DNA of 64,000 bases from an uncultured Actinomycetota bacterium (lineage in GTDB: Bacteria > Actinomycetota > Geothermincolia > Geothermincolales > Geothermincolaceae), in contig CAZETE010000003.1 of assembly GCA_964515075.1 (NCBI GenBank), positions 14,254 to 78,253 on the forward strand. The letters are read 5' to 3'. Shown here piece by piece: positions 34,318 to 64,000 of this stretch (positions are counted from its first letter, which is position 1; every line of letters starts with the position of its first letter). The notes beneath the pieces were generated by a model, which searched no databases, was not told the DNA's origin, and saw only the letters and a list, made by a program, of their open reading frames with translations. A program made the position numbers and the translations under genes.

Positions 34318-34373
34318 CCCTTCACGTCCTCCTCTCGCTCCTTTCCGGAAGTTCGCTGCGCGTGCTCGAAAAA

Positions 34374-35861: not shown

Positions 35862-35863
35862 TC

Positions 35864-37168: not shown

Positions 37169-37172
37169 GCCC

Positions 37173-38081: not shown

Positions 38082-38082
38082 G

Positions 38083-38481: not shown

Positions 38482-38484
38482 GCG

Positions 38485-39294: not shown

Positions 39295-39437
39295 GCCGTT
39301 CCTCCCTTCCCGTTCTCGCCTTTTACCGCTTCCGGTTCTTTAGGGATAACGGACGGGGGAAGGGGATGGTTACAGAATCCCTCGGATGCGGCCGCACCGG
39401 CGAAGGCGCGGCCCGTCGGGGGCCGTGGAGGGACCGC

Positions 39438-42391: not shown

Positions 42392-42392
42392 G

Positions 42393-45125: not shown

Positions 45126-45148
45126 AACCTCCCTACCTCCGTTCCACG

Positions 45149-45310
45149 ATTTGGGGTCAGGCCCCAAATTCAGTTTTTCCGCCTCCAACGGCATGGATGA
45201 CCCGCTTCACGTCTGGAAAGTGAAATTTGGGGCCTGCTCTGGAAATGCGACGTTTTCATCCTTCCGTGGTGCCGCGTGGCGCGGCATGAACGACTGACCC
45301 CAAATTCAGT
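45149..45310. repeat. Composite REP-like element (GGGGTCAG family) inside the methyltransferase gene run
   Basis: ATTTGGGG-TCAGG-CCCCAAAT hairpin at 45149-45169; 45216-45301 is the near-exact reverse complement of 6609-6693. Confidence 0.85.
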
Positions 45311-45931
<621 letters not shown>

Positions 45932-45937
45932 GGTCCC

Positions 45938-46579: not shown

Positions 46580-46592
46580 CTCCCCTCCCCCT

Positions 46593-47369: not shown

Positions 47370-47392
47370 CCTCCGCCCGCCTTCCTCCTGCC

Positions 47393-47430
47393 TTGACAAC
47401 CGCCGCTGATTTGTATATATGTATATACAA
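47393..47430 (+). promoter_or_regulatory. Sigma70-type promoter with overlapping HutC-type operator
   Basis: TTGACA 47393-47398; perfect inverted repeat TTGTATATA-TG-TATATACAA 47411-47430 containing GTATATAC (matches the HutC consensus GTMTAKAC). Confidence 0.75.
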
Positions 47431-47475
47431 GTTATAGCAACGGGAGGCTAGGCTGTCAAGCCGGGGAAGGGGAGG

Positions 47476-48621: not shown

Positions 48622-48637
48622 GCAGGAAAGGACGGCC

Positions 48638-49819: not shown

Positions 49820-50641
49820 GTGTTCTTTCGCAAGACCAAGTGGAGATTCTTCCTCTACGCGCTGCCCTTCTGGCAGCCGCTGACGGACAGGTGGGCCTCC
49901 GTCACCAACTGGCCCATCGTCGGCAAGGCCTCACAGTACCTGCACAACGACGAGCACTACGACGTGACCTTCATCCCCGTGAACCAGGACATCGAACAGG
50001 ACCCCTCCACCGTCCTGCCCCGCCAGGTGGCGGAGGAGATGTGCCGCCGCGCCGCCCACCGGGTCATCCTGCCCATCTGCCTCTGCCGGGTGGGATGCCG
50101 CTGCCAGGACCACCCCATGGAGATCGGCTGCATCTTCATGGGCGAGAGCGCCAAGCAGATCGACCCCAGCATGGGCCGGGCGGTCTCGGTGGAGGAAGCC
50201 ATGGAGCACATCGACCGGGCCATCCGGTCCGGCCTGGTGCTGCAGATCGGGCGGGTGGACGCCGACCCCTTCATGCTGGGCATCAAGCCCCGCGACCGCG
50301 ACCGCTTCCTCACCCTCTGCTTCTGCTGCCCCTGCTGCTGCGTGGCCATGCGCAACATGCCCCGCTGGGCGCCGGAGTTCAAGGCGCGCATGCACGCCCT
50401 GGAGGGATTGAGCATCGAGGTGACCGACGATTGCAACGGCTGCGGCCGCTGCGTCGACGCCTGCTTCGCCGGGGCCATCTCCATCGAGGGGAAACGGGCA
50501 GTCATCAGCGACGCCTGCAAGGGGTGCGGCATCTGCGCCTCCACCTGCCCCCGCCACGCCGTGGTCGTCCGGGTGGAGGACGGCAACCGCATGCTCGAGG
50601 AGGCCTTCCGCCGCATCGAGCGCTACGCCGACGTCACCTGA
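49820..50641 (+). CDS. Cys-rich 4Fe-4S dicluster protein
   Basis: CLCRVGCRC, GCIF, CFCCPCCC, CNGCGRCVDAC, CKGCGICASTCP. Confidence 0.85.
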   Translation: MFFRKTKWRFFLYALPFWQPLTDRWASVTNWPIVGKASQYLHNDEHYDVTFIPVNQDIEQDPSTVLPRQVAEEMCRRAAHRVILPICLCRVGCRCQDHPMEIGCIFMGESAKQIDPSMGRAVSVEEAMEHIDRAIRSGLVLQIGRVDADPFMLGIKPRDRDRFLTLCFCCPCCCVAMRNMPRWAPEFKARMHALEGLSIEVTDDCNGCGRCVDACFAGAISIEGKRAVISDACKGCGICASTCPRHAVVVRVEDGNRMLEEAFRRIERYADVT

Positions 50642-50688
50642 GCTTGCGCCCGCCTCCCTCCGTGCCCCCTTGAACCCGGCGGGCACGA

Positions 50689-50721
50689 CCCCGCAGGCGG
50701 GCTGGGAGGGATCCTGCGGGG
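50689..50721 (+). terminator. GC hairpin after the 4Fe-4S gene
   Basis: CCCCGCAGG (50689-50697) pairs with CCTGCGGGG (50713-50721). Confidence 0.4.
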
Positions 50722-50810
50722 CGCCGGTCCCGGCCCCTCCTGGGCCGGTGCGGCCCGATGGCGTTATAATGCTGGTAGCCGGAGCAGGGCAGGAGCAGGA
50801 AGGACAGGGC

Positions 50811-51275
50811 ATGGAAGGGCAGCAGGTGAGTCAGGAGCCGGCGCCGCAGGCGCAGGATGGGGTGAGCGGGAAGAAGGTGGCGCTCATCTTCTTCCTCATC
50901 TTTTTGGGCCTACTGGCCATCGCGGGCGCGGCCTTCGGCATCTATGTCTGGCGCTTCAACGCCGCCATAAACGACATCTCCATCGAGCCCGTCGACCTCC
51001 TGCAGCTGCCGGACGGCGCCTACTTCGGCAACCGGAGCGTCTTCCACGTGGAGGTCTCGGTTAGCGTCGTGGTCAAGGCCCACCAGATCGTGGCCATCGA
51101 CGTGCTGGACGCGGGGTCCACGGGCAACGGCGGCCAGGGCAAGGAGAACCTGGACCTGCTCATCTCGCGGATCATCGAGTCGCAGGACGTCCGGGTGGAC
51201 ACGGTCAGCGGGGCCACCGCCACCCAGAAGGTCTTCTTGAAGTCAGTGGAGGGGGCCCTGACCCGCGGGGACTGA
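50811..51275 (+). CDS. Membrane-anchored FMN-binding (flavinylated) protein
   Basis: One TM helix, then DGAYFG...VDTVSGAT flavinylation motif; TATAAT at 50765-50770; start reset to ATG 50811. Confidence 0.85.
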   Translation: MEGQQVSQEPAPQAQDGVSGKKVALIFFLIFLGLLAIAGAAFGIYVWRFNAAINDISIEPVDLLQLPDGAYFGNRSVFHVEVSVSVVVKAHQIVAIDVLDAGSTGNGGQGKENLDLLISRIIESQDVRVDTVSGATATQKVFLKSVEGALTRGD

Positions 51276-51319
51276 CGGACGGGGCGCCCGCCCGGAGAAA
51301 CCCCGCCCGGACGGAGGGG

Positions 51320-51787
51320 GTGAGCCCGCTGAACGGGGCAGTCGTTTACTGCGGCAGGCACGACAGCTTGAGAAAGCTGGCCGAGGGCATCGCCGGCGGC
51401 CTGGCGGAGTCGGGTTACGTCGTATCCTTGATGGAGGCGGAGTCGGTGGAGCACCTCGACCCCGACCTGGTCTTCCTGGTGGTGGGCTCCCCCGCCCGCG
51501 CCGGCAGGGCGGCGAGGGCCCCCTCGAGGCTCATCAAGCGCCGGATGGGCGGGGGGTGGGCGGGCAAGCCCTATGCCGTCTTCGCTACGGGCATCCGGGA
51601 CGGGGGCGGCGAGCCGCAGTCCAAGGGGGCCGACCAGCTCCACCGGCTGCTGCGGGAGCGCGGCCTGCTCCCGCTGGCGGAACCCTTCAAGGCCTGCGTA
51701 CAGGCGGCGAAGGGGCCGCTGGAGGAGGGCGAGTTCGAGCGTGCCGTCCAGTTCGGCAGGGACCTCGCCGCCGCCCTGCGCCGCTGA
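51320..51787 (+). CDS. Flavodoxin-like protein
   Basis: VVYCGRHDSL..LAEGIA, VVGSP, YAVFAT, GPLEEGE.ERA..FG. Confidence 0.7.
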   Translation: MSPLNGAVVYCGRHDSLRKLAEGIAGGLAESGYVVSLMEAESVEHLDPDLVFLVVGSPARAGRAARAPSRLIKRRMGGGWAGKPYAVFATGIRDGGGEPQSKGADQLHRLLRERGLLPLAEPFKACVQAAKGPLEEGEFERAVQFGRDLAAALRR

Positions 51788-51840
51788 CCCCGCCGCCGCC
51801 GGACCGGCCCCGCTTCTTCCTGGGGCCCTTTCGCCGAGGG

Positions 51841-51897
51841 TTGACAACCGCCGCGAGTGTCCTATCATAGATTACAAAAGTGTCTGACATTCAGACA
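51841..51897 (+). promoter_or_regulatory. Promoter plus FadR-type operator
   Basis: TTGACA 51841, TATCAT 51863; inverted repeat TGTCTGA-CAT-TCAGACA 51881-51897 (GTC-T-GAC matches the FadR consensus GTM-N-KAC). Confidence 0.75.
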
Positions 51898-52004
51898 TAT
51901 TTATTTGCCGAATATCCACCATATTCGCAGCAGCCCGCAGCCGTTTCACCGCACCGGACAGCACACATCCACCAGGCGAGTACGCTCGGAGAGGCGGTGA
52001 GAGA

Positions 52005-52784
52005 GTGGCCGTAGGGGAGATCCTCCGCATCGACCGGGCCCCCTCCATGCCCGACCTGGTGGCCGGGCGCATCCGGGACATGATCGCCTCCGGAGCCCTT
52101 GAGCCCGGCGACTGCATCCCCCCCCAGACCGCGCTGGCCGGACAGATGGAGGTGAGCCGCGCCAGCGTGCGCGAGGGGCTCAGGTCCCTGGAGGCGGGGG
52201 GGTACATCCAGAGGCTGCCCAACGGCAGGTACCGCGTCACCGCCCTCACCGGGGGCCGGCTGCCCAACCCCCTCCTGGCGGTGCTCAGGTCGGACCCTTC
52301 GCTGGTGTGGGACCTGCTGGAGGCGGCGGAGGTGATGGTGGTGGAGGCGGTGCGCCTGGCGGCGGTGCGCGCCGGCGGAGAGAGCATCCGGAAGATGGGG
52401 GAGACGGTGCGGCAGATGGAGGAGTGCAGCCGCAGCCGCCGCCGCTTCGTGCGCGAGTTCATCCGCGTTTACTCCAATTTCTACGAGGCGCTGGCCGGCG
52501 CCACCGGCAACGTCGTCTACCTCCACCTGGGCCACGCCTTCCTGGAGGTGCTGGCGGAGGCCCTGCCCTACCCGGACAAGCTCTTCCTGGTGCAGGCCGA
52601 CATCTCCACCGTGCTCTACCGCCAGCACCTGGACATCTGGGAGGCCCTGCGGGACGGCGACCCGGGAGCGGCCGCGGCCGCCTTCCGGCGCCACCTGGGC
52701 TTCATCGAGGAGAAACTGCGGATGATCCTGGGGGCGGATGAAGGCCGGAACGCGAAGCCGGCCCTGGACCAAGGGGGTGGATGA
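52005..52784 (+). CDS. FadR-subfamily GntR regulator
   Basis: I..G.LEPGD.IP....LA.QM.VSRASVREGL; FCD domain with ATGN and H..I..A. Confidence 0.92.
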   Translation: MAVGEILRIDRAPSMPDLVAGRIRDMIASGALEPGDCIPPQTALAGQMEVSRASVREGLRSLEAGGYIQRLPNGRYRVTALTGGRLPNPLLAVLRSDPSLVWDLLEAAEVMVVEAVRLAAVRAGGESIRKMGETVRQMEECSRSRRRFVREFIRVYSNFYEALAGATGNVVYLHLGHAFLEVLAEALPYPDKLFLVQADISTVLYRQHLDIWEALRDGDPGAAAAAFRRHLGFIEEKLRMILGADEGRNAKPALDQGGG

Positions 52785-54040
52785 TGGGTTACGCGGACGT
52801 CTTTCCGCGGCTTTCAGCCGGGGTGTCCCAGGCCGACCTGGCCCTGGCCCGGGCCTTGCGGGACTGGGGGGAGAACGAGGTGGCGGGCAAGCGCCTGGAG
52901 TTGAAGGAGGACTACGAAGGGCTGCTCAAGCCGGCCATGCGCAAGCTCTTCTGGGATATCGGCATGCAGAAGATCGCCTGGCCGGAGCGGCTCGACGGGG
53001 GCGGCCAGGACACGCCGGACCTGGCCCCGACCATGGCGACGGCCCTGGAGGAGATCGGCCGCGCCGACACCGGCATCGCCTGCCTGCTCGCCGTCGACCT
53101 CGCCTTGAGCGCGGCGGTGGCCATGCCCCCGGGTCCGCCCGGGGCCCTGCTGGAGAGGATGGCCGGCGATTTCTGCCGGTCCGGCAGGGCGGTCGTCGTC
53201 TCGCTGGTCCTTCCGGCCCTGGGGGGCAGGGCCGCCGGCAGCCTGGGCGAGTACCGCGGCAAGACCGTCCCCCTGGCCAGGCCGGAGGGCGGAGGGTGGG
53301 CCGTGGACGCGCGGGGCCTGCGCCCCTTCAACTCCGGGGCCGACGCCGACTTCTTCTGCGTGGCCTGTTCCGCCGCCGAAGGCGAATCCCCCCTGCTGCT
53401 GATGGTCCCCGGCGACGCGGCGGGCCTCAAGCGCGGGGCGGAGTTCAAGAAGACCGGGCTGGCCGCCAGCCGCAATGCCGACATAGACCTCGAGAACGTG
53501 AAGGTACCGGCGGAGCAGGTGCTGCTGCGGGGGGAAGCGGCCTGGCGCGGGCTCCTCTCCTGGCTGTGCCTGGGGATGAGCGCCACCTGCACCGGCGCCC
53601 TGCTGGCCGCCTACGAGATCATCCGGGAATGGGGGGACACCCGGGTGATCAAGGGGCGGGGGTGCGCCTTCCGGGACAACCCCCTGACCGCCTCGCTGAT
53701 GGCGGAGATCGCCACCACCGCGACGGTGGCGCGCCTGCTCACCGGCTCGCTGTCCCAGCTGCTGGCCGAGCCTTCCGTCCACGGGGACGCCGGCTCCGAG
53801 AGGGTCTGGGCGGCCGCCTGGGGCGTTTTCAACCGGGTGAGCGCCTCGGCGGAACAGGCCATCGACAACACCATGGAGCTGATGGCCTCGGCCGGCTACG
53901 CCAAGGAGTGGCAGCTGGAAAGGTACTGGCGCGACGTCAAGACCGTCGCGGTCAGCATGGGCAGCCGTGAGCTGGGCAAGATGGACCTGGCCCGCTGGTT
54001 CTACGGGGCCCGGCCGCTGGGAGGAGGTGGAGGGGAATGA
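52781..54040 (+). CDS. Degenerate acyl-CoA dehydrogenase-fold protein A
   Basis: WPERLDGGG, EEIGRAD, MELMASAGYAKEWQLERYWRD; TEP and YEG motifs absent. Confidence 0.85.
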   Translation: MMGYADVFPRLSAGVSQADLALARALRDWGENEVAGKRLELKEDYEGLLKPAMRKLFWDIGMQKIAWPERLDGGGQDTPDLAPTMATALEEIGRADTGIACLLAVDLALSAAVAMPPGPPGALLERMAGDFCRSGRAVVVSLVLPALGGRAAGSLGEYRGKTVPLARPEGGGWAVDARGLRPFNSGADADFFCVACSAAEGESPLLLMVPGDAAGLKRGAEFKKTGLAASRNADIDLENVKVPAEQVLLRGEAAWRGLLSWLCLGMSATCTGALLAAYEIIREWGDTRVIKGRGCAFRDNPLTASLMAEIATTATVARLLTGSLSQLLAEPSVHGDAGSERVWAAAWGVFNRVSASAEQAIDNTMELMASAGYAKEWQLERYWRDVKTVAVSMGSRELGKMDLARWFYGARPLGGGGGE

Positions 54041-55311
54041 GGCTGCGCACCATCGACGATATCACCCGGCCGCGGGAGTACCTCTCCCCCCTGGACGAGT
54101 ACCTGGGGGGGATCATCCGCAAGTGGGCCGACACGGAGGTCATCCCCCACCGGCGCCGTTACGACGAGGACTGGAAGGACCACGAGCTCATCGAGCCCGC
54201 CTTCCGCAAGCTGATGGGGGAGATGGGCCTGCAGCGCCTGCTCTTCCCCGAGGACCTGGGGGGCTGGGGCATGGGCCACTCGGACTACCTGGGCACCGGG
54301 GCCTACCGCATGTTCGAGGAGGTCGCCCGGGCGGACTCGGCCATGGCCGTCGCCTTCGGCGTGGTCTTCTGGCCGCTGGTGATGATCTGCAACGAGCCCC
54401 ACGTCAACCGGCGGCTGTGCGAGGAGTTCGCCCCCCTCTTCTGCTCCACCACCGAGGCGGTCTTCGCCGCCAACGCCATGACCGAGCCGCAAGGGGGGGC
54501 GGACATCGAGAACGTGGAGGTCCTCGGCGGCTCCACCATCCAGACCACCGCGGTGAGGGACGGGGACGAGTGGGTGATCAACGGCCACAAGCTCTGGCCC
54601 ACCAACTCGGGCGGCGTCTCCAGCCTCTTCTCGGTCATCTGCACCACCGATCCCGGCGTCAACGACCCCGCCAACTTCGCCTTCATCTTCGTCCCGGCAG
54701 GCCTGCCCGGGGTGACCCAGGGCGGGCCCTACGAGAAGGCGGGCATGGCCGCGGACAAGAACGGCGACATCTGGTTCGAGAACGTGCGGGTGCCCTCCTG
54801 GTACCGCGCCTTCGGGCCGGGGCTGGACTTCGAGTACTTCAAGGAGGTGGTGGCCCTGGGCAACATGGGCTCCGTCGCCTTCGTCTCCGGCGCCATGATC
54901 AACGTCTACGAGCGGCTCTACGACTTCGTCACCGAGCACAGCTTCGGGAAGAGGGCCTTAAAGGAGCACGACGCGGTGGCCGGGGTGCTGGCGGACTTCG
55001 CCGCCTCCCTGGAGGTCATCCGCATCGTCGGCTACCAGCTGGCGCGGATGATGGACCGCCCGGACGTCTACGGTCCGCGCTGGGCGGCGGAGAACGTGGC
55101 CAAGGGGCGCGCCTACAAGTACTTCGCCTGCGACCGCGCCATGACCGAGATCGGCCGGGTGCTCAACCTGATGGAATCGCTGGGGGCGGACCGCGACTCC
55201 GACGTCGAGAAGCACTGGCGCGACCTGAAGATCGTCCAGCTGTGGATGGGCGGCAAGCAGCTCTGCCAGATGGAAGTGGCCCGCTGGTTCTTCGAGTGCG
55301 AGACCCTCTAG
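54037..55311 (+). CDS. Acyl-CoA dehydrogenase-fold protein B
   Basis: FPEDLGG.G, EEVARADS, AMTEPQGGAD, INGHKLWPTN, EKHWRDLKIVQLWMG. Confidence 0.92.
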   Translation: MRLRTIDDITRPREYLSPLDEYLGGIIRKWADTEVIPHRRRYDEDWKDHELIEPAFRKLMGEMGLQRLLFPEDLGGWGMGHSDYLGTGAYRMFEEVARADSAMAVAFGVVFWPLVMICNEPHVNRRLCEEFAPLFCSTTEAVFAANAMTEPQGGADIENVEVLGGSTIQTTAVRDGDEWVINGHKLWPTNSGGVSSLFSVICTTDPGVNDPANFAFIFVPAGLPGVTQGGPYEKAGMAADKNGDIWFENVRVPSWYRAFGPGLDFEYFKEVVALGNMGSVAFVSGAMINVYERLYDFVTEHSFGKRALKEHDAVAGVLADFAASLEVIRIVGYQLARMMDRPDVYGPRWAAENVAKGRAYKYFACDRAMTEIGRVLNLMESLGADRDSDVEKHWRDLKIVQLWMGGKQLCQMEVARWFFECETL

Positions 55312-55325
55312 GCGGTGATGCGGCC

Positions 55326-56003
55326 ATGCAGGAGACGACCAGGCAGGCCGGCATGGTGGACGCCGCCAACCGCGTCGCCCGCGAGCTGCTCCGGACCCCG
55401 CGCTTCAAGGAGGGCCTCAAGATGGTGCTCGACTCGCTGGACCCGGAGTCCGCGCCGGAGCTGGTGCGCACGCTGGTCTGGGAGGATACCGACGTCTTCC
55501 TCTCCCTGGCCGGCTCGCTGCCCCGGCTCCTGAACATCTTCTTTTACGCCTTGAAGGAGCTGGCGGAGCAGCTGGGCAGCTTCCCCCCGGAGATGCTCTC
55601 CGGCTTCCTGGCCGGGGCCGTGGAGGGCCTGGAGGGAGAGGCGCTGGGGGAGGCGCTGGGGAGCGCGGCGCGTCTCCTCGCCCGGGTGTCGGAGGCGTCC
55701 GGCGAGAGGGTGCCCCGGAGCGCCGGGGAACTCGCCCGCTCGGCGGGCCGGGGCTTCGCCGGGGCCCGCCATCCCGGCGGGCAGGCCGAGGAGCCCTCCC
55801 CGGCCGCGGCTGCGCTGGCCGCCGTGAGCCGGGCGGTCAAGGCCGCGGCGGCGGCGGCCGCGGTGGAGGGCTCTCCCGCCCGCCGGGCCCTGAAGGCCTG
55901 CGCGGAGGACCTGGCCGGGGCCGTGCGGGAGCACCCGGAACTGGTCCGGGAGGCGGCCCCCGTCCTCGAGGCCCTGCGCGCCGCGGGCTGGGGGGTGGCG
56001 TGA
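55326..56003 (+). CDS. Unknown all-helical protein H1
   Basis: Start reset to ATG 55326; N-terminal half aligns by eye with 56003-56746. Confidence 0.75.
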   Translation: MQETTRQAGMVDAANRVARELLRTPRFKEGLKMVLDSLDPESAPELVRTLVWEDTDVFLSLAGSLPRLLNIFFYALKELAEQLGSFPPEMLSGFLAGAVEGLEGEALGEALGSAARLLARVSEASGERVPRSAGELARSAGRGFAGARHPGGQAEEPSPAAAALAAVSRAVKAAAAAAAVEGSPARRALKACAEDLAGAVREHPELVREAAPVLEALRAAGWGVA

Positions 56004-56746
56004 TGGAGAAGACGGTGCCGGCCGCGGGCGCGGAGACCTCCGGAGCCCTGCCGCGGGTGATGCGGGAGCTCATCCGCACCCCCGTGTTCCGGGAGCTGCT
56101 CAAGCTGAACCTGCGGGAGGCGCCCCACGGCAGCGCCGCGGAGCTGGCGCGGGTCCTCGTCTTCGAGGACGTAGACATCTTCCTGAGCCTGTTCGGCTCA
56201 TCCCCCCAGGCCGTCAACTCCGCAAGCGAGTTCCTGCTGGAGCTGGCGCGGCAGCTCGAGAGCTTTCCCCCGGAAGTGCTGCGCGCATTCATCCGGCGCA
56301 TGGGCGCCAAGGTCGAGGTGGAAGCCGTCAAGGCCCTGCCGGGGGCCGTCTCGCCCCTCTTCGACGCCCTGCTCTGGAGCGATGCAGCCGCGGTGCAGGG
56401 CCTGCGCGACCTGCTGGCGGCGGCGGCCAACGCTGCCCTCTGGGGCGGCGCGGACGTCCTCAAGCGCCTGGAGGAGGCCCCGGCCGGCGGCGGGCGTCGG
56501 CCCGGGCTGGACGCCGAGGCGGTGGCCGAACTGATCAACGCGGGAGCCCGCACCTTCGGCATGGCCGCCTCCTCCCGCCCCGCCTTCCTGGCCGAGGTGG
56601 CCACCCACCTCGACCGCGAGGCCCTGCGCGCCGCGGCCGACGGGGCGCTCGACGCCGTCTCGGAGGCCGGCATCTCCGTGGTGGCGGCGTTCTCCTGGGC
56701 CCTGAAGGCGGCCTGGAAGATCATTAAAGGTAAGCTTAAGAGTTAG
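56003..56746 (+). CDS. Unknown all-helical protein H2 (paralog of H1)
   Basis: TGATG coupling to H1; shares REL.RTP.F.E.L..SA.EL.R.LV.ED.D.FLSL.GS.P..N..L.ELA.QL.SFPPE.L with H1. Confidence 0.8.
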   Translation: MEKTVPAAGAETSGALPRVMRELIRTPVFRELLKLNLREAPHGSAAELARVLVFEDVDIFLSLFGSSPQAVNSASEFLLELARQLESFPPEVLRAFIRRMGAKVEVEAVKALPGAVSPLFDALLWSDAAAVQGLRDLLAAAANAALWGGADVLKRLEEAPAGGGRRPGLDAEAVAELINAGARTFGMAASSRPAFLAEVATHLDREALRAAADGALDAVSEAGISVVAAFSWALKAAWKIIKGKLKS

Positions 56747-56816
56747 CTATATTGGCTGAGGGCGGTGGTCCCTGCCGGCCCGGACCCGGACGGGGACCCC
56801 ACCGAGAGGAAGGCAG

Positions 56817-58337
56817 GTGGTGGCGTTGTCCGAGAAGGACCAGGCCCGGGAGAAGACCAAGGATTACCGGAGAGAGGTGAGGAAGGAGGTCAAGGACCTG
56901 CTGGGGCTGCTCGAGGCGGCCGAGAAGGCCCCGGCGGGAGAGGTCCTCTACGGAGGAAAGGCCGCTTTGGGGCGCGAGGCGCTCCTGGCCCTCCCCCGCC
57001 TGCTCAAGATTTACCTTCAACTTATGGTTGATGCTTCCGACTACCTGACGGGCCTGCCGGAGGAGGAGTGGAAGTCCTTGGAGGACGCCGCCCTGGCCTC
57101 GCTGGAGGAGATGCCCCTGGGGGAGGCGGTGAACGCCTATTTCCGCCTCTCGCGCAGGCTCTGGGAGGAGGACGCGGAGGCGCTGGCGGAGGCGGAGCTC
57201 GGCCTGGCCGCCGCGGCCATCGAGCGCATCGACTTCGGCAAGGTGCGCAAGGCCGTGGAGGTGAAGCTTGAGGGGCGCTACCCGGTCTACGCGGGGGTGA
57301 TCGACCGCCTGGTGGGAGACCCCATCATCATCGCCAACCTGCTCACCGCCGCTCCGGCTTACGCCAACACCCTCCTCCGCCTGTTGAACAGGGTCCTGGC
57401 CGGCCTGGACCTGCCGTCGGAGATCCTGGCCTCGGCCATCTTCAACCTGCTCGAGGCCCTCGACGTCGAGGAGGCGGGGCGGGTGGCCACGGGGATCTCC
57501 CAGGTCGTCAAGTCCCTGCACGAGGGCAGCCTGGTGCTGGGCTTAAACGAGCCCCGCTTCCGCGAGGTGGCCGAGCGGCTGGTTGAGCGCTTCCTCTCCT
57601 CCGCCGACTGGCAGTCCGGCTACGAGGCGGTGGCGGCGCTCTCCGAGAACCTGGAGGTGCTCATCCGGGTCATGGCGGACTCCGCCGTCTCCCGCCCCGA
57701 GTTGATGGCGGCCGGAGCATCCTGCGCCGCCCGCTCCCTGGGCTCGCTCATCCGCGGCCTCTCCTATTCCGCCCGCCGCCTGGAGGTCCTGCCCGACGCC
57801 TTCTTCGAGACGTGGGGCCGCGCCGTCCTGGACCACGCCGAGCTTCGCGAGCTGGGCGAGCTGGTCAACTCCCTGCTGGTGGCACACAACCGCCTGGCGG
57901 ACGCCAACCCGGGTATGCTGGGGGAGGCCCTGGACCGGGCCTGGAGCGGCATCGACCCGGAGGAGCTGGGCCGGGCCGCCCGGGAAGGCATGCGCCAGAC
58001 CTTCGGCTGGCTGCTCAGGCAGGACCCCGCCGGGCTCTTCGAGCCGGGCGAGGCGGGGCGCCTGCTCAACGAGCTCATCGCCGCATACAACCGCTCCCCG
58101 GCCTTCTCGCCGGGCGCCTTGCGCGATTACCTGGGAAGCGTCCTGGGTCAGTTGGACCCGCAGGAGCTGGGCCGGGCCCTGGACTCCGCCGCCTCCCAGG
58201 TGGTGGAGGCGGTCACCGCCGAGCCGGCGCTGGCGAGGGTCTTGATGCGCTCCGCGCTGGGGGCGTTGTGGAAGGCGTTCAAGGGGACGGCGGGCGCGCT
58301 GCTCGCCGCCTGGAGGGGCCGGAAGGCGGGTGGTTGA
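56817..58337 (+). CDS. Unknown helical-repeat protein H3
   Basis: 506 aa; internal repeats IDPEELGRA / LDPQELGRA / LDVEEAGRV and LGEAVN / LGELVN / AGRLLN. Confidence 0.8.
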   Translation: MVALSEKDQAREKTKDYRREVRKEVKDLLGLLEAAEKAPAGEVLYGGKAALGREALLALPRLLKIYLQLMVDASDYLTGLPEEEWKSLEDAALASLEEMPLGEAVNAYFRLSRRLWEEDAEALAEAELGLAAAAIERIDFGKVRKAVEVKLEGRYPVYAGVIDRLVGDPIIIANLLTAAPAYANTLLRLLNRVLAGLDLPSEILASAIFNLLEALDVEEAGRVATGISQVVKSLHEGSLVLGLNEPRFREVAERLVERFLSSADWQSGYEAVAALSENLEVLIRVMADSAVSRPELMAAGASCAARSLGSLIRGLSYSARRLEVLPDAFFETWGRAVLDHAELRELGELVNSLLVAHNRLADANPGMLGEALDRAWSGIDPEELGRAAREGMRQTFGWLLRQDPAGLFEPGEAGRLLNELIAAYNRSPAFSPGALRDYLGSVLGQLDPQELGRALDSAASQVVEAVTAEPALARVLMRSALGALWKAFKGTAGALLAAWRGRKAGG

Positions 58338-59451
58338 GGTGGAGAAGATGCAGGGCTTGGCGAGCGTGCTCGAGAACGACTACGTGAAGAAGGCCAAGGC
58401 GGAGGGCGTCCCGGTCGTCGGCTACGCCTGCCTGGCCACGCCGCGCGAGATCTTCGACGCCGCCGGCATACTCCCCTACCGCCTCAGGGGCATGTCGGTG
58501 TCCCGCACCGAGCTGGCCGATGCCTACCTCTCCCGCTTCAACTGCGGCTTCTGCCGCTCCTGCCTGCAGCTGGCCCTGGACGGCAGCTACGGCTTCTTCG
58601 ACGGGCTGCTGGAGACCAACGGCTGCGACCACCTGCGCGGCATGTTCGAGAACTGGCAGTACGCCCACCCCGAGGAGTTCTTCCACTACCTGCGCGTCCC
58701 CCACCTCACCGACGAGGAGTCTACGGACTGGTTCGCAGAAGAGCTCGGCCTCTTGAAGGAGGCGCTCGAGGACCGCTTCGGGGTGTCCATAAGCGACGCC
58801 GACCTCTCCGCGGCCATGGACCGGCAGGCCTCCATCGCCCGGAAGCTCCGGGACATCTACGAGAGCCGCTGGGGCGACCGCATCAAGGTCAGCGGCGGCG
58901 AGATCCTCCAGCTGATGGTGCTGGAGGGGTCCATGCGTCCCGCCGACTTCTCCGCGCTGCTGGACGAGTTCGCCGCGGAGCTGGAGGAGCGCCAGCCCCT
59001 GGAGTACCGGGCGCGCATCTTCATGGGCGGCTCAGCCACCGACGAGGTCGAATTGCTGACCGAGCTGGAGGCCCTGGGAGGGGTGGTGGTGGCCGACTCC
59101 TTCTGCTTCGGCGGGCGCATCTTCCGCAACGGGGAGGAGCCGGAGGGCTCCCCCCTCGAGCGGCTGGCCCGGCGCTACCTGCACAACCTGATGTGCCCGC
59201 GCATGTTCGACGACTACGCGCGGCGCAAGGCCTTCATCGACGGCCTCATCTCCGGGTCACGGGCGGACGGCGCCATCCTCTTCCACAACAAGTTCTGCGA
59301 CGTGCACGGGGTGGAGAACGTCAAGCTGCGCATGGACCTGGAGAAGGAGGGGCTGCCGGTGCTCACCCTGGAGAAGGAGTACGGCGCCTCGGCGGACATC
59401 GGGAGGCTCAAGACCAGGGTGCAGGCCTTCCTGGAAAGACTGAGGAAGTGA
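58330..59451 (+). CDS. 2-hydroxyacyl-CoA dehydratase / benzoyl-CoA reductase family subunit (beta/BcrC-like)
   Basis: VGY....PREIFDAAG, three cluster Cys (FNCGFC, NGCD, KFCD), VVADSFC.G.R, RLKTRVQAFLE. Confidence 0.88.
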   Translation: MVEVEKMQGLASVLENDYVKKAKAEGVPVVGYACLATPREIFDAAGILPYRLRGMSVSRTELADAYLSRFNCGFCRSCLQLALDGSYGFFDGLLETNGCDHLRGMFENWQYAHPEEFFHYLRVPHLTDEESTDWFAEELGLLKEALEDRFGVSISDADLSAAMDRQASIARKLRDIYESRWGDRIKVSGGEILQLMVLEGSMRPADFSALLDEFAAELEERQPLEYRARIFMGGSATDEVELLTELEALGGVVVADSFCFGGRIFRNGEEPEGSPLERLARRYLHNLMCPRMFDDYARRKAFIDGLISGSRADGAILFHNKFCDVHGVENVKLRMDLEKEGLPVLTLEKEYGASADIGRLKTRVQAFLERLRK

Positions 59452-60923
59452 CGGCCGTGACCGACGTACTCATCAAGGAGCATCAGGGCCTCTACGACCG
59501 GGTCTATTCCCTCTTCTCCATCGTCGGCAGGCTGAAGGAGGAGATGAGCCCGGAGGAGGTGGAGGGGATGCTCAGGGTGCTTCCCCCCGACACCTACAAG
59601 GCCCTCAAGTCCATGCTGCGCCAGGACCTCCTGCCCGCCACCCTGGCCTTCATGCGCATGCTCAAGGCCTGGATGGACGAAGCGGTGCGGGCGCGGGAGG
59701 AAGGCAGGAAGGTCATCCTGGTGCCCTTCAACTTCCCCCCCGAGCTCATCCACTCCTTCGAGGGGGCCTTCCCCCTGACCAGCGAGGTCCTCTCCACCCT
59801 GGGGGTGGTGGCGCTGGAGGGCCAGGGCGAGCGCTACTGGGACTACGCCATGGGCCTGGGCCTGCCCGACCACCTCTGCTCCTCCAACACCATCGCCCTG
59901 GGGAGCATCCTCACCGGGTCCGACTTCTCGCCGGACGCCATCGTCTCCTCCGCCGCGGGCGCCTGCGACGTCAACGCCATGGTCCACGAGTTCGTCGCCC
60001 ACCTGCTGGACGTCCCCCACATCATGCTGGAGAAGCCGGGGGACAGCGGCCGCCGGGGGCGGGAGCTCTTCGGCCGCTACTACCGGCGGATGGTCCGGCA
60101 GCTGGAGGAGTTCGTCGGCGAGGAGCTCGAGGCGGACAACCTGGAGGTGGTGGCGGAGAAGAGCAACCGCTGCACCGAGCTCTATTACGACCTCTGGGAA
60201 CTGCGCAAACAGATCCCCTCGCCCGTGCCGGCCATCTTCGCCCTCTACACCTACGCCACCCGCTTCACCATGTGGGGGCGGGACGAGGGCATCGCCTGCC
60301 TAGAGGCCTGCGTCGACGTGGCCCGCCGCAACCTGGAGAGGGGGACCTTCCCCGCCGCCGGAGAGGTGGCCCGCCCCCTGTGGATCTACCTCCCCTACTT
60401 CTTCGACTTCGTGGGCTTCTTCGACTGGATGGAGTCGCGCAACATCGCCAACATGGGCGACGTGCTGATGTGCTGCTTCCCCTCCAGGGTGGACACCTCC
60501 TCCAAGGAGGCCATCCTCGACGGCATGTGCGAGGCGGCCTGGAACATGCCCATGACCCGCCAGATGGGCGGCGACGTCATGTCCCAGCGCTGGCTCTCGG
60601 ACATCGTCTACACGGTGAAGGAGCTCAACTGCAACTGCGCCATCTACTGCGGCCACCACTCCTGCAAGCAGACCTGGAGCGTCTTCTCCCAGGTGCGCAA
60701 CGAGATAACCCGCCAGGCCGGGGTGCCCACCCTGTGCCTGCAGGGGGACACCTGGATCGGGCGCACCACCCCCATCAGCGTCATCCAGGAAGAGATCGCC
60801 ACCTTCGTGGACAACGTGGTGGCCGGGGGCGGCCGGCGCCGCCGGCGGAGCAGGGCGAAAGCCGCGGCCGGCGCGCCCGCGAAGCCCGGCGAGGCGGAGG
60901 CCGCCGGGGAAGAGGCGGGATGA
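59448..60923 (+). CDS. 2-hydroxyacyl-CoA dehydratase family subunit (alpha/BcrB-like) 1
   Basis: Start reset to GTG 59448 (GTGA overlap); PPELIHSF, DHLCS, GACD, HSCKQ, PTLCLQGD. Confidence 0.88.
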   Translation: MTAVTDVLIKEHQGLYDRVYSLFSIVGRLKEEMSPEEVEGMLRVLPPDTYKALKSMLRQDLLPATLAFMRMLKAWMDEAVRAREEGRKVILVPFNFPPELIHSFEGAFPLTSEVLSTLGVVALEGQGERYWDYAMGLGLPDHLCSSNTIALGSILTGSDFSPDAIVSSAAGACDVNAMVHEFVAHLLDVPHIMLEKPGDSGRRGRELFGRYYRRMVRQLEEFVGEELEADNLEVVAEKSNRCTELYYDLWELRKQIPSPVPAIFALYTYATRFTMWGRDEGIACLEACVDVARRNLERGTFPAAGEVARPLWIYLPYFFDFVGFFDWMESRNIANMGDVLMCCFPSRVDTSSKEAILDGMCEAAWNMPMTRQMGGDVMSQRWLSDIVYTVKELNCNCAIYCGHHSCKQTWSVFSQVRNEITRQAGVPTLCLQGDTWIGRTTPISVIQEEIATFVDNVVAGGGRRRRRSRAKAAAGAPAKPGEAEAAGEEAG

Positions 60924-62341
60924 GGAGAGCGGTGGTCGAGGTAGGGCGGCAGGCCGGCGACGGCCTCTTCAGGCGGGTGGAGAACCTGGTCAAGGTGGCG
61001 ATGCGCCTGCCCGACGACTTAAGCGACGAGGAGGCCGAGGGCCTGGTCCGGGCGCTGCCGGCCGACACCGCCCGCAACATCGCGGCCATGCTCCACCCGC
61101 GCTTCCGCCCGGTTTCCATCGCCTTCATGAAGATGGTGGGGCGGTGGATGTTCGAGGGCAGCCGGGCCGGGGAGGAAGGGATGAAGGCCGTCCTCATCCC
61201 CTTCAACTTCCCGCCCGAGGTCATCCGCATCTTCCGCCGGGCCCGCCCCCTCACCTGCGAGTTCCTCACCACCGTGGGAGTGGCCATGCTGGAGGGCCAG
61301 GGCGAGCGCTACTGGGACTTCGCCATGGGGCTGGGCATCCCCGACTTCCTCTGCTCCTCCTCCACCATAGAGCTGGGATCCATCCTCTCCGGCTCCGACT
61401 TCTCCCCCGACGCCCTGGTGCAGTCGGCGCCCGGCGCCTGCGACGCCAACTCCAAGATCCACGAGTTCGTCTCCCGCTACATGGGGGTGCCCCAGTTCGT
61501 CGTCGAGAAGCCGGTGGATGGCGGGGCGCGGGGCAGGGAGCAGCACCGCCGCAGCTTCCGCCGCTTCATCCGGGACCTGGAGGAGTTCACCGGCGAGGAG
61601 CTGGACGAGGGGCACATGCGCGAAGTCCTTACGCGGGCCAACCAGGCGGCGGAGCTCTACTACGACCTCCACGAGATGCGCAAGGCCGCCCCCTGCCCGG
61701 TGCCCAACATCATCTCTCTCTACACCTACGGGGTCCGCTTCACCACCTGGGGCACCCGGGAAGCGGTGGAGATGATGCGCATGATGGTGGAGCTGGCGCG
61801 GGCGCGCCTGGAGAAGGGGGAGTACCCGGCCGCCGAGGAGGTGGCCCGCTGCATGTGGCTGTACATCGGCTACTACTACGATTTCATGGGCTTCTTCAAC
61901 TGGATGGAGGAGAACGGCATCACCTACCTCAACGACATCCTCTCCCTCTGCCAGCCCCTGCGCATCGACACCACCTCCAGGGAGAGCATGCTGGACGGCC
62001 TGGCCGAGGCGGTCTTCGAGTACCCCATGACCCGCCAGATGGGAGCGGGCTCCATGTCGGAGTCGTGGGTGGAGGACATGTCCCGCTTCATCAAGGAGCT
62101 GGGGGCCAACTGCGCCGTCTACTCCGGCCACCACGCCTGCAAGCAGACCCAGAGCATCATCGGCCGGGTGCGGGAGGAGATCGTCAGGCGCACCGGGGTC
62201 CCGGTGCTCTGCCTCACCGGCGATTCGTGGATACGCAGGATGACCCCCACCGGCGTGCTGCAGGAGGAGCTGTCTTCCTTCGTGGACAACGTGGTGGCGA
62301 AGAAGAAGGCGCGCCGCCGCAAGGCGGCCGGCGTAGAGTAG
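60920..62341 (+). CDS. 2-hydroxyacyl-CoA dehydratase family subunit (alpha/BcrB-like) 2
   Basis: Start reset to ATG 60920; PPEVIRIF, DFLCS, GACD, HACKQ, PVLCLTGD; full-length paralog of 59448-60923. Confidence 0.88.
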   Translation: MRRAVVEVGRQAGDGLFRRVENLVKVAMRLPDDLSDEEAEGLVRALPADTARNIAAMLHPRFRPVSIAFMKMVGRWMFEGSRAGEEGMKAVLIPFNFPPEVIRIFRRARPLTCEFLTTVGVAMLEGQGERYWDFAMGLGIPDFLCSSSTIELGSILSGSDFSPDALVQSAPGACDANSKIHEFVSRYMGVPQFVVEKPVDGGARGREQHRRSFRRFIRDLEEFTGEELDEGHMREVLTRANQAAELYYDLHEMRKAAPCPVPNIISLYTYGVRFTTWGTREAVEMMRMMVELARARLEKGEYPAAEEVARCMWLYIGYYYDFMGFFNWMEENGITYLNDILSLCQPLRIDTTSRESMLDGLAEAVFEYPMTRQMGAGSMSESWVEDMSRFIKELGANCAVYSGHHACKQTQSIIGRVREEIVRRTGVPVLCLTGDSWIRRMTPTGVLQEELSSFVDNVVAKKKARRRKAAGVE

Positions 62342-62354
62342 AAAGGAAGGGCAG

Positions 62355-63152
62355 ATGGCCAAGCGCTATGGAGGCATCGATGTCGGCTCCCTCTCCGCCC
62401 AGGCGGTGATCCTGGAGAACGGCTCCATCCGGTCTTATTACACCATGCCGGTGAAGCCCAACCCGCTGGACTCGGCGACCAGCGTGCTGTACCTGGCCCT
62501 GGAGGCGGGCGGCCTGGAGCCGGGCGACCTGGCCTTCACCGTCAGCACCGGCTACGGCAGGGAGCAGGTCCAGAAGGAGGGCCTCTCGCAGGCCAACGTG
62601 AGCGAGATCTCCGCCCACGGCAAGGGGGCGCACTGGCTGCTGCCGGCAGCGCACACCATCATCGATATCGGCGGGCAGGACGCCAAGGTGATCCGGGTGG
62701 ACCGGGACGGCGAGCTGGTGGACTTCGTCATGAACGACAAGTGCGCGGCGGGGACCGGACGCTTCCTGGAGGTGATGGCCCGCACCCTGGGCGTCTCCCT
62801 GGAGGAACTGGGCCCCCTCTCCTTCAAGGCCCGCAACCCCATCGAGCTCTCCACCCGCTGCAGCATCTACTGCGAGACCGAGGCCCTCCACTACCTGCAG
62901 CGCGGGGTGGAATCGGCGGACATCGCCGCCAGCGTCAACCGCACCATGGCCGAGCGGGTGCTGGCCCTGGTGCGCCGGGTGGGCATGGAGAAGGAGGCCA
63001 CCATGACCGGCGGGGTGGCCAAGAACGTGGCGGTGCGCAAGGAGCTGGAGCGCCTCATCGGCTCCCGGCTGCTCGAGTACGACGTCGATTCGCAGATCGT
63101 GGGGGCGCTGGGAGCGGCCCTCATCGCCAGGGAGCAGGGGGGCGGCCGATGA
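62355..63152 (+). CDS. ATP-dependent electron-transfer activase (HgdC/BcrA/D-type ASKHA) 1
   Basis: GIDVGS, TGYGR, EISAH, DIGGQDAK, MNDKCAAGTGRFLE, RCSIYCETE, TGGVAKN. Confidence 0.93.
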   Translation: MAKRYGGIDVGSLSAQAVILENGSIRSYYTMPVKPNPLDSATSVLYLALEAGGLEPGDLAFTVSTGYGREQVQKEGLSQANVSEISAHGKGAHWLLPAAHTIIDIGGQDAKVIRVDRDGELVDFVMNDKCAAGTGRFLEVMARTLGVSLEELGPLSFKARNPIELSTRCSIYCETEALHYLQRGVESADIAASVNRTMAERVLALVRRVGMEKEATMTGGVAKNVAVRKELERLIGSRLLEYDVDSQIVGALGAALIAREQGGGR

Positions 63153-63931
63153 TCACCATGGGGGTGGACGTGGGCAGCCTCTTCTCCAAGGCGGTGATCC
63201 TGCGCGACGAGGAGATGCTGGCCGGCGAGGTCCGCGAGACCACCGGCAACGTGGCGCGGGAACTGGACGGCCTCATCGCGGCGGCGCTGGACCGGGCGGG
63301 CATCGGCCCGGGGGAGGTGGAGGTCTGCGTGAGCACCGGCACCGGGGGTGACCTGGTCAAGCCGGCCGAGTTCGACGAGGACGACGTGGCCTGCCTGGCC
63401 ATGGCCTGCCGCCACTTCCTGCCGGAGGTGGCGGTGGTGGTCAACATCGGCGGGCAGTCCATCGCCACGGTCCTCTCCGACGCCGAGGGAGAGGTGCTCG
63501 ACTTCATGCGCAACGACAAGTGCGCCTCCGGTTCGGGGCGCTATCTCGAGGTGATGAGCGCCGCCCTGGGGGTGCCGGTGGACATGATCGACGCCACGGC
63601 CGAACGGGCGGAGCGGCGCATCTCCATCAGCTCGCAGTGCGGGGTGTTCGCGGAGAGCGAGATCGTCTCCCACGTCAACCAGGGCGAGCCGGTGCCGGAC
63701 ATCGTGGCCGGGCTCTGCGACTCGGTGGCCTCCATGGTCATCTCCCAGGCCATGCGCTTCGGGGGCGGCGGCGACTACACCATCACCGGCGGGGTGGCCC
63801 GCCTGAAGAGCGTGACCGGCATGATGCAGGAGAGGATGCGCGGCACCTATCACCCCTTCCCCATCGACCCCATGCTAGCCGCCGCCTTCGGGGCCGCCCT
63901 CATCGGCGGCCTGGAAGAGCTGCCCGAGTAG
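63149..63931 (+). CDS. ATP-dependent activase 2 with degenerate nucleotide motifs
   Basis: GVDVGS, STGTGG, NIGGQSIA, NDKCASGSGRYLE, SSQCGVFAESE, TGGVAR; start reset to ATG 63149. Confidence 0.9.
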   Translation: MITMGVDVGSLFSKAVILRDEEMLAGEVRETTGNVARELDGLIAAALDRAGIGPGEVEVCVSTGTGGDLVKPAEFDEDDVACLAMACRHFLPEVAVVVNIGGQSIATVLSDAEGEVLDFMRNDKCASGSGRYLEVMSAALGVPVDMIDATAERAERRISISSQCGVFAESEIVSHVNQGEPVPDIVAGLCDSVASMVISQAMRFGGGGDYTITGGVARLKSVTGMMQERMRGTYHPFPIDPMLAAAFGAALIGGLEELPE

Positions 63932-63940
63932 CTGGACGGC

Positions 63941-64000
63941 ATGGGCCTCTTCGACGAAGCGCTGGCCGGAGTGGTGGCGTGGCGCGAGGAGCTCCGCGCC
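63941..64000 (+). CDS. Start of the next gene, truncated by the window edge
   Basis: ATG GGC CTC TTC GAC GAA... (MGLFDEALAGVVAWREELRA) open to the end of the window. Confidence 0.4.
   Translation, partial: MGLFDEALAGVVAWREELRA

Follow-up and report, generated by a model that had tools for sequence, protein, structure and literature searches.

The DNA analysed here is a stretch of 64,000 nucleotides (hereafter the window; positions 14,254 to 78,253 of contig CAZETE010000003.1, assembly GCA_964515075.1) from an uncultured Actinomycetota bacterium of the Geothermincolaceae, and from position 52005 onwards it carries an operon of 13 genes, two of which lie past the window edge. We hypothesize, with moderate confidence, that this operon encodes a multi-subunit, ATP-dependent, low-potential reductase having the architecture of a class I (Bzd-type) benzoyl-CoA reductase (BCR) together with extra modules not found in any characterised relative. 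The core belongs to the ATP-driven radical enzymes and reductases of the BCR/2-hydroxyacyl-CoA dehydratase (HAD) group, whose reactions include some of the most difficult reductions in biology; substrates are known, to our knowledge, for no more than a handful of its subfamilies. What is new is the fixed partnership of this core with a putative heteromer of acyl-CoA dehydrogenase (ACAD)-like proteins devoid of the canonical base, with two unannotated helical families, with a protein carrying a domain of acetyl-CoA synthase (ACS) and with a candidate maturase of the CooC type. Full-text searches of the literature found no description of the cluster. Its genes are as follows.

52005-52784, + strand: g1, regulator with GntR and FCD domains (Pfam, NCBIfam)
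52781-54040, + strand: g2 (ACADa), weak ACAD fold, degenerate subunit
54037-55311, + strand: g3 (ACADb), ACAD fold, flavoprotein-type
55326-56003, + strand: g4 (S), no Pfam or NCBIfam match, one copy of the S domain
56000-56746, + strand: g5, no Pfam or NCBIfam match, N-terminal part of L
56817-58337, + strand: g6, no Pfam or NCBIfam match, C-terminal part of L
58330-59451, + strand: g7 (beta), HGD-D protein of the BzdN type
59448-60923, + strand: g8 (alpha-1), HGD-D protein of the catalytic type
60920-62341, + strand: g9 (alpha-2), HGD-D protein, paralogue of g8
62355-63152, + strand: g10 (Act1), BcrAD_BadFG protein, ASKHA ATPase
63149-63931, + strand: g11 (Act2), BcrAD_BadFG protein, second ASKHA ATPase
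63941-64000, + strand: g12 (mini-ACS), first 20 codons, the remainder at L001:1654-2376; 240 aa in all
L001:2387-3151, beyond the window in the same operon: g13, CooC-like ATPase of 254 aa

A plot of G+C at third codon positions (GC3) shows + strand coding frames running unbroken from 52005 to the end of the window, and seven of the ten junctions between g1 and g11 overlap by 4-8 nt, the remaining gaps being 13, 14 and 70 nt, so that frames, coordinates and junctions all agree with the eleven same-strand, mostly overlapping genes of a preliminary description made from the sequence. Because the G+C content of the window is about 70%, raw lists of open reading frames are crowded with shadow frames, and long GC-rich examples such as 53967-56003 were dismissed as genes by the GC3 frame analysis. 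The same description had the operon continue past the window edge, and inspection of the downstream DNA bears this out: the Logan contig L001 matches the end of the window across 1713 nt with 0 mismatches and goes on through g12 and g13 to a convergent gene on the opposite strand.

The subunits of the proposed reductase are assigned through HGD-D matches, which confirm the layout of two alpha (g8, g9) and one beta (g7) seen earlier. In a profile alignment g7 matches BzdN at 4.7e-41, and six of its cysteines (C34, C72, C99, C259, C289 and C323), each at least 95% conserved among 64 sequences, align with C36, C73, C100, C263, C293 and C327 of BzdN; the cluster ligands of BzdN and BzdO are listed in a published study (PMC11971306). 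The only invariant cysteines of the alpha subunit (C144, C173 and C406 of g8; 106 sequences) align with C95, C128 and C380 of BzdO and with cysteines in HadB, and Glu113, His180, His403, His404 and Lys407 are likewise invariant. Glu113 lies 31 residues before the first of these cysteines and Glu65 of BzdO lies 30 before Cys95; in alignments Glu113 meets a Glu of HadB only, the likeness to BzdO Glu65 being one of spacing. More than 400 relatives of g8 at 50-60% identity are present in public data, all of them generically named. The second alpha, g9, is 54% identical to g8 and belongs to a different and older alpha clade; where six-gene loci are without ACADs, their sole alpha is an orthologue of g9 at about 70% identity, and the alpha paralogue clades follow position within the locus.

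The ATPases of the proposed reductase are two different proteins, and the heterodimeric activase suggested previously would be formed by g10 and g11, which are 31% identical and have two conserved cysteines apiece (C130 and C169 in Act1, C125 and C164 in Act2) as well as the ATP motifs. The g10 product scores 226.8 bits against TIGR00241 (cut-off 125.4), a domain-level model and the sole curated model passed by any subunit; the BzdQ model is matched at 198.2 bits (cut-off 380.2). The best profile match of g10 in the PDB is MbdQ (3.3e-59), with HgdC at 2.3e-56 and HadI about equally close. Comparison was extended to other organisms by a scan of one genome per species, in which 75 loci were found, and two distinct activase genes are present in 43 of the 53 loci whose downstream flank is readable.

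Two different ASKHA ATPases with two cluster cysteines apiece, a six-cysteine N-type subunit, three-cysteine O-type subunits and, going by its spacing, a conserved alpha Glu are features also of the class I enzymes BzdNOPQ and MbdONQP. However, the scores lie far below the equivalog cut-offs of NCBIfam. For g7 these are 174.2 bits against double_cubane (NF040772; cut-off 350), 129.1 against BzdN (453.8) and 114.8 against HadC (700); the BcrC model is matched at 108.1 bits (421). HadB, at 48 bits against a cut-off of 750, is the sole alpha-type equivalog that matches g8 and g9, which score 30-44 bits against the double_cubane model and have three cluster cysteines only; the BzdO model gave no significant match for either. 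With all equivalog scores so far below their cut-offs, the sequences support the view that no subunit falls in a characterised HAD or BCR clade, and the cluster fits neither family, as had been proposed, adding co-conserved genes of its own. Unlike the class I systems, it has an alpha that is duplicated or occurs as several paralogue clades, an ACAD pair, S and L, a mini-ACS and a CooC-like protein, and it is without genes for a dienoyl-CoA hydratase or ring cleavage. Domain searches found no electron-transfer flavoprotein (ETF), CoA-transferase or ring-cleavage gene anywhere in the window, in keeping with the preliminary description, and neither the window nor the recurrent neighbours of the cluster in the 75 loci include a dienoyl-CoA hydratase, hydroxyacyl-CoA dehydrogenase, ring hydrolase or benzoate-CoA ligase.

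The same description had left the choice between a Birch-type reduction and a radical dehydration. The six double-cubane cysteines of beta, the three-cysteine alpha and the heterodimeric ATPase together favour a reductase in which ATP is used stoichiometrically over catalytic activation of the HAD type, so that the reductive half of that proposal gains and the dehydrating half loses ground. According to the latter, which we consider unlikely, the alpha-beta pair would dehydrate an (R)-2-hydroxyacyl-CoA via a ketyl radical and the ACAD pair would then reduce the enoyl-CoA. The had and fld operons indeed encode an ACAD beside their HGD-D subunits, a layout familiar from amino-acid-fermenting clostridia, and HadBC/HadI, HgdAB/HgdC and FldBC/FldI share with the cluster the alpha/beta HGD-D fold, a three-cysteine alpha and an activator of the ASKHA type that carries a bridging cluster. 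The HadB match of g8 and g9, the alignment of Glu113 with a HadB Glu, the nearest models of the regulator g1 (PdhR, LldR and GlcC, which sense 2-oxo or 2-hydroxy acids) and a trio of genes for a GlcDEF-like 2-hydroxy-acid dehydrogenase 8 kb upstream would all suit a dehydratase. Yet the six double-cubane cysteines of beta are like those of BzdN and DCCP and not of the HadC/HgdB type with its single [4Fe-4S] or [4Fe-5S] cluster, there are two different activase genes in place of one for a homodimeric activator, both ACADs are without the canonical base, and HadB and HadC score 48 and 115 bits (cut-offs 750 and 700). Moreover, no CoA-transferase, ETF or 2-hydroxyacid dehydrogenase is conserved beside the cluster in the 75 loci.

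The double-cubane cysteines also bring to mind DCCP and its reductase DCCP-R from Carboxydothermus hydrogenoformans, in which a six-cysteine double-cubane HGD-D fold is reduced by an ATP-driven ASKHA protein (PMC11971306). Were the operon to encode a DCCP-like reductase of a small non-CoA molecule, the ACAD-like proteins would serve merely in electron transfer or as structural parts. Acetylene, azide and hydrazine are substrates of DCCP in vitro, the protein is the best PDB profile match of alpha (1.8e-14), double_cubane is the best NCBIfam match of beta, and a metal-insertion ATPase is present in the operon. We nevertheless regard this explanation as quite improbable, since the match of 174 bits remains under the cut-off of 350 and since alpha has lost the second sub-cluster, retaining three cysteines as do the substrate-binding BzdO and HadB. 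In addition, DCCP and its reductase are both homodimers, with a cluster in each DCCP subunit, whereas here an alpha-beta enzyme with six cysteines in beta only is accompanied by two ATPases. Finally, two ACAD folds, the CoA-domain fold of ACS in g12 and neighbouring ligases of the FadD type point to thioesters, and for these reasons the substrate of the reductase is most likely a CoA thioester.

The ACAD pair differs from catalytically canonical members of its family. ACADb retains the FAD motifs TEPxxGxD and WxTN, also written TEPQGGxD and WPxN, and neither protein has the canonical catalytic Glu at the position of MCAD Glu376 or of IVD Glu254. The window ACADb has Met at the former position and Val at the latter; across its family these are Met or Leu and Ile, Val or Thr, and ACADa has Leu, Val or Met at the position of MCAD Glu376. 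The earlier assignment of two atypical ACADs without the Glu is thereby upheld. ACADa has no FAD motifs left but still shows the C-terminal interface motif, with 55 residues at least 95% conserved, chiefly in the C-terminal domain, and this combination suggests that the two proteins form a heteromer with one flavin. Actinobacterial steroid catabolism offers a precedent in the alpha2-beta2 ACADs of the ChsE/FadE type, which keep the catalytic Glu in one subunit and use ordinary electron acceptors. As in those pairs, the two ACAD genes are adjacent and translationally coupled and one product has lost its FAD-binding motifs; unlike them, the present pair has no Glu at either canonical position and shares its operon with a predicted ATP-driven iron-sulfur reductase.

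No other component of the system comes near ACADb in conservation: its identity between phyla is 70-77%, 166 of its 424 residues are conserved to at least 95%, and it is tempting to place the catalytic centre there. The alpha-beta proteins and activases would then inject electrons of very low potential into the FAD through a scaffold of S and L, for a flavin-radical acyl-CoA chemistry comparable with that of 4-hydroxybutyryl-CoA dehydratase or of ACAD-fold enzymes lacking the base. The conservation, the retention of the FAD motifs in a protein whose canonical base is gone, and the constant company of S and L, otherwise unexplained, speak for this arrangement. It is nonetheless improbable in our opinion, for eight of the 38 complete loci hold the core without the ACAD pair, which implies that alpha-beta functions without the flavoprotein, and alpha itself retains invariant residues resembling those of an active site.

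The preliminary description listed three helical proteins between the ACAD and reductase genes. Their helical nature stands; their separateness does not, for g4, g5 and g6 share a repeated S-like helical domain and make up one repeat family, in which the L protein that most other genomes encode in one piece is represented by g5 (about residues 1-224 of L) and g6 jointly. The g4 product is soluble and acidic with no transmembrane segment and has orthologues in loci L007, L009 and L010. The L family is soluble and acidic as well, and small (260 relatives among 1.84 billion representative proteins). An AlphaFold2 (AF2) model of g6 is all-helical with a pLDDT of 67 (moderate confidence), and a fold search of the PDB with it gave no match with E <= 0.001. 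We considered whether g5 and g6 are the remains of a broken L gene; this was ruled out, the same split being found in loci L011 and L061, and full-length g6-type proteins of about 500 aa are common, which also disfavours a pseudogene.

The two genes past the window edge extend the reductase in another direction. The g12 product matches the CdhC model of Pfam and the ACS models of NCBIfam across ACS positions of about 315-475, its family profile aligns to residues 332-490 of the Moorella ACS, the middle (A2) domain, and all 22 significant PDB entries matched by its AF2 model (43 homologues; pLDDT 90.6) are acetyl-CoA synthases. Its tail holds an invariant CxxCx5C motif (C211, C214 and C220), and C138 is kept in 31 of 38 sequences. 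The nearest solved relative of g13 is CooC1 (3kje; 3.6e-14), with which its CxC motif aligns (gCYCqvNtFL against qCYCreNsFL); this motif (C112-x-C114) and the deviant Walker A motif (GKGGVGKT) are at least 95% conserved. The CxC motif of CooC binds nickel at the dimer interface, and g13 is a candidate maturase of the CooC type. The adjacency of the two genes recalls that of an enzyme and its maturase, as in AcsB/CdhC with CooC/AcsF. However, g12 is without the A1 domain and without the A3 domain, which in ACS supplies the A-cluster ligands (four cysteines for a [4Fe-4S] cluster and a Cys-Gly-Cys for nickel), and no carbon monoxide dehydrogenase or corrinoid iron-sulfur protein is linked to the cluster. 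Its CxxCx5C tail would stand roughly where the first cysteines of the A-cluster would be expected, as judged from collinearity; no tool aligns it with Cys506, Cys509 and Cys518 of ACS. A homologous A-cluster in g12 was not established by alignment, and we keep it solely as a supposition drawn from that collinearity. Since g12 and g13 accompany the activases and not any particular alpha-beta pair, we place them on the supply or maturation side of the system. Nickel dependence has been argued from a co-encoded metallochaperone in the isoprene reductase operon (PMC10134865), which was set aside as a relative, being unrelated in sequence.

It is interesting to speculate on a more far-reaching role for these two proteins. 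The operon might represent a new class of enzyme complex in which an ACS-derived CoA-binding protein (g12), loaded with metal by the CooC-type ATPase, works with a BCR-type electron pump and a base-less flavoprotein; the metal would possibly be nickel and the acyl-CoA chemistry possibly one that no known HAD or BCR member performs. We put this forward tentatively and think it rather doubtful. If true, it would bring, for example, reductive C-C or C-S chemistry at a thioester, or reduction of an unactivated group, to anaerobes of the deep subsurface, hot springs and digesters.

The evidence that the reductase and its extra modules form one functional unit comes from comparison of the 75 loci, in which the gene order is syntenic across at least four phyla, and on three distant contigs reads ACADa, ACADb, S, L, beta, alpha, Act1, Act2, CdhC-like, CooC-like. 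The carriers are Ca. Geothermincolia, Solincola, Anoxymicrobiaceae and Acidimicrobiales on the side of the Actinomycetota, Syntrophomonadaceae, Dethiobacteria and others on that of the Bacillota, and Desulfobacterales, Desulfosudaceae, Myxococcales and Archaeoglobi. The alpha proteins closest to that of the window are those of locus L061 (80% identity) and of Ca. Geothermincola secundus (77%). The conservation search thus substantiates the earlier suggestion that the ACAD and helical genes are conserved together with the HGD-D and activase genes across phyla. Nesting of the subunits in a characterised clade, together with loss of this co-conservation, had been named as the outcome that would speak against a new system; instead, scores lie under the cut-offs and co-conservation holds. 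Gene content was tabulated for the 38 loci with both flanks readable.

17 of 38 loci: full ten-gene system
8 of 38 loci: six-gene core lacking the ACAD pair (an L-like gene remains in one, and one shows a single activase match)
4 of 38 loci: ACAD-S-L-beta-alpha with activases, without g12 and g13
4 of 38 loci: ACAD-S-L-beta-alpha only
5 of 38 loci: alpha alone or with ACADb only

The six-gene core consists of beta, alpha, two activases, mini-ACS and CooC-like, and the optional module of ACADa, ACADb, S and L, which is missing in about one-fifth of the complete loci; g12 and g13 are linked to the reductase core more tightly than are the ACADs. Loci that hold ACAD-S-L-beta-alpha only occur in metagenome-assembled genomes (MAGs) with a six-gene locus elsewhere, and for this reason the activases, g12 and g13 can be seen as a shared service module, to which the ACAD/S/L set would be an optional catalytic add-on. 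Such complementary split loci lie in the same MAG in three cases (L010 with L037, L072 with L078 and L073 with L042). Single MAGs carry two to four full or partial copies of the system: MAG SURF_21 has L044, L063, L064 and L080, and one Geothermincolia contig has L026 and L065 about 22 kb apart. Together with the tandem alpha genes of some loci (up to three, in L021), these copies suggest an expansion for several substrates.

That the six-gene core and the ACAD/S/L/beta/alpha set can lie at separate loci might also be taken to mean that unrelated operons, namely an ACAD/helical operon, an HGD-D reductase operon and ACS/CooC remnants, have come to stand side by side by chance. This we find barely credible: the gene order is shared by Actinomycetota, Bacillota, Deltaproteobacteria and Archaeoglobi, a synteny that largely refutes it, start codons overlap stop codons where one module meets the next, a single promoter-like site serves 12.8 kb, and the separated halves co-occur in the same MAGs. 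Overlapping junctions, one promoter with its operator, synteny and complementary split loci argue together for one functional unit. Two side observations concern the loci L007 and L008. A Bacillota genome of the L007 type is frequent in biogas digesters, and the cluster of L008 is that of L007 with the ACADs, S and L in fragments, most likely through frameshifts of assembly or sequencing and not through pseudogenisation.

Our current working hypothesis for the reductase is as follows. Reduced ferredoxin or flavodoxin, the presumed donor, would reduce a [4Fe-4S] cluster bridging Act1 and Act2, and the binding and hydrolysis of ATP at the two ASKHA sites would drive the electron uphill to beta, whose cluster is predicted, by analogy with BzdN, to be an [8Fe-9S] double cubane. 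The double cubane would store electrons and hand them to the three-cysteine [4Fe-4S] cluster of alpha, where an open iron together with Glu113, His180, His403, His404 and Lys407 would act on the substrate by reduction or ketyl-radical chemistry. The old alpha paralogue clades would share one beta and one ATPase, probably with differing specificities or in a beta-alpha-alpha' core. The heteromer of ACADa and ACADb, with one FAD in ACADb, no canonical base, and S and L holding it in place, may act on the CoA ester, either ahead of the iron-sulfur chemistry or once it is complete. In the same scheme g12 could be a metal-loaded adaptor for CoA binding or electron supply, with g13 as its maturase, and the two could act in trans for several alpha-beta pairs.

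A number of observations weigh against this hypothesis. Alpha is about equidistant from DCCP, HadB (1.4e-10) and BzdO (1.1e-5), and its invariant Asn176 stands in place of His131 of BzdO, the partner of Glu65 in the proton relay of that [4Fe-4S]-OH2 subunit, from which it follows that the proton chemistry of alpha would differ from that of BCR. ACADb has an invariant Glu270 in a 5-residue insertion where helix G begins; this residue may be a base that has moved, in which case the protein would be an ordinary dehydrogenase or reductase. The g12 product has just three invariant cysteines and is without the nickel-binding Cys-Gly-Cys of the A-cluster, and the parts given to S, L, g12 and g13 are ones that we infer. 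The CoA ester, too, we infer from fold and gene neighbourhood, and no conserved hydratase, thiolase or ring hydrolase is found among the recurrent neighbours of the cluster in the 75 loci. Finally, all 75 loci come from MAGs; no cultured host was found among the carriers, and the 2.7 Mb contig with P0032 is likewise from a MAG.

With hundreds of alpha relatives in public metagenomes and 75 uncultured loci, the cluster marks out a discrete subfamily that spans phyla. Its expressible gene set yields testable predictions of cofactors, namely an [8Fe-9S] cluster in beta, an open-site [4Fe-4S] cluster in alpha, one FAD per ACAD pair and, possibly, a nickel or iron-sulfur site in g12. The cluster may reflect a so far undescribed form of anaerobic carbon metabolism in Geothermincolia, Solincola, Syntrophomonadaceae and Archaeoglobi.

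Expression of the operon appears to be governed from a short region upstream of g1.

51841-51868, + strand: sigma-70-like promoter TTGACA-16 nt-TATCAT, 11 of 12 positions matching, in an AT-rich island
51881-51897, no strand: palindromic operator TGTCTGAcatTCAGACA, perfect 7-bp arms and a 3-nt spacer

The promoter, judged to be strong, is the sole such site in 51200-64000 (12.8 kb), where shuffled sequences predict 0.4, and the palindrome TGTCTGAcatTCAGACA occurs once in the window against 0.07 expected. A TTGACA box is found at the equivalent place in the related loci L011 and L061, and between it and the g1 orthologue lies TGTCTGAcatTCAGACA, without a mismatch in L061 and with 2 in L011. This phylogenetic footprint argues that the operator is genuine, and TGTCTGAcatTCAGACA is likely to be the binding site of g1. 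A terminator scan flags the palindrome on both strands, an artefact of its symmetry. The regulator itself matches GntR (PF00392, 7.7e-15) and FCD (PF07729, 6.7e-16), the Pfam search returning FCD for its C-terminal domain and no FadR_C, the acyl-CoA-binding domain of E. coli FadR. Among NCBIfam models PdhR, LldR, NanR and GlcC come nearest to it, each falling far short of its cut-off. Of one promoter and a FadR-type operator, as first described, the single promoter and the palindrome therefore remain, and the FadR type gives way to a GntR regulator of the FCD type. By our hypothesis g1 would repress the operon from the palindrome, and the binding of an effector, a small acid or an acyl compound, would lift the repression. 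Promoter, operator and a run ATATTTATTT lie together at 51840-51930, a strikingly AT-rich island in a genome of 70% G+C. Known riboswitches were searched for in the 135-nt leader and none was found.

Apart from three small redox proteins of uncertain membership, the rest of the window is unrelated to the operon.

49820-51787, + strand, directly before the promoter: a 273-aa protein with C-terminal 2x[4Fe-4S], an FMN_bind protein and a weak flavodoxin-like protein
44298-49768, divergent operon pair around 47450: corrinoid methyltransferase module
39474-43979, - strand: GlcD/GlcF/GlcE-like flavoprotein trio
32403-39339, - strand: acyl carrier protein, AccD-like, FabG, FabH, biotin carboxylase and AccA, for fatty-acid synthesis and acetyl-CoA carboxylase
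21493-27611: KdpD, KdpB and KdpA
6777-20239, - strand: purine biosynthesis genes PurH, PurL, PurB, PurD and PurA

The proteins at 49820-51787 are candidate electron donors to the activase, and their membership in the operon is uncertain: seven other loci have a relative of the 273-aa ferredoxin-domain protein no more than a few kb from the cluster, and the FMN_bind and flavodoxin-like genes are syntenic only in the close relative L061. Ligases of the FadD type adjoin the cluster in 11 loci and in g9-type loci are convergent, 60-360 nt away. They are the sole hint of the hydrophobic CoA ester (long-chain, steroid-like or aromatic) suggested in the preliminary description, for which direct support was not found. 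In ten loci (L021, L027, L033, L041, L049, L058, L062, L065, L077 and L079) a calcineurin-like metallophosphoesterase of about 370 aa lies on the same strand 36-518 nt downstream of the CooC-like gene and is possibly an extra member of the operon; the organism of the window has its convergent gene there. Other recurrent neighbours are a PocR-sensor kinase with a LuxR regulator, or a TetR or GntR regulator, and AIM24-like proteins. The ACAD-less loci L037, L042, L078 and L028 have an AIM24/TIGR00266-like zinc-ribbon protein just upstream, a PrcB_C-domain protein, two family-less proteins of about 170-240 aa and a convergent FadD-type ligase 60-360 nt downstream.

The corrinoid module resembles a system of the O-demethylase type, with a pterin-binding methyltransferase, two B12-binding corrinoid proteins and a GntR/UTRA regulator on the - strand and, on the + strand, two URO-D/MtaA-like proteins that match Pfam over their C-terminal 140 or so residues only. 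It was rejected as a part of the cluster, URO-D and/or B12-binding genes being near the cluster only in L010 and L080. The flavoprotein trio comprises proteins with FAD_binding_4 and FAD-oxidase_C (528 aa), with Fer4_8 and CCG (455 aa) and with FAD_binding_4 only (563 aa), and scores 46-50 bits against the glycolate oxidase models (cut-off 568). By description, an abundant flavoprotein of strain BzS1, for which a role in anaerobic benzene activation is proposed, has the same domain layout (PMC13416013); this GlcDEF-like system resembles the trio only, and was discarded as a match for the cluster. The fatty-acid synthesis region at 32403-39339 also holds a 133-aa protein with no match, possibly a biotin carboxyl carrier protein, and the window carries genes for SmpB and NAPRTase as well.

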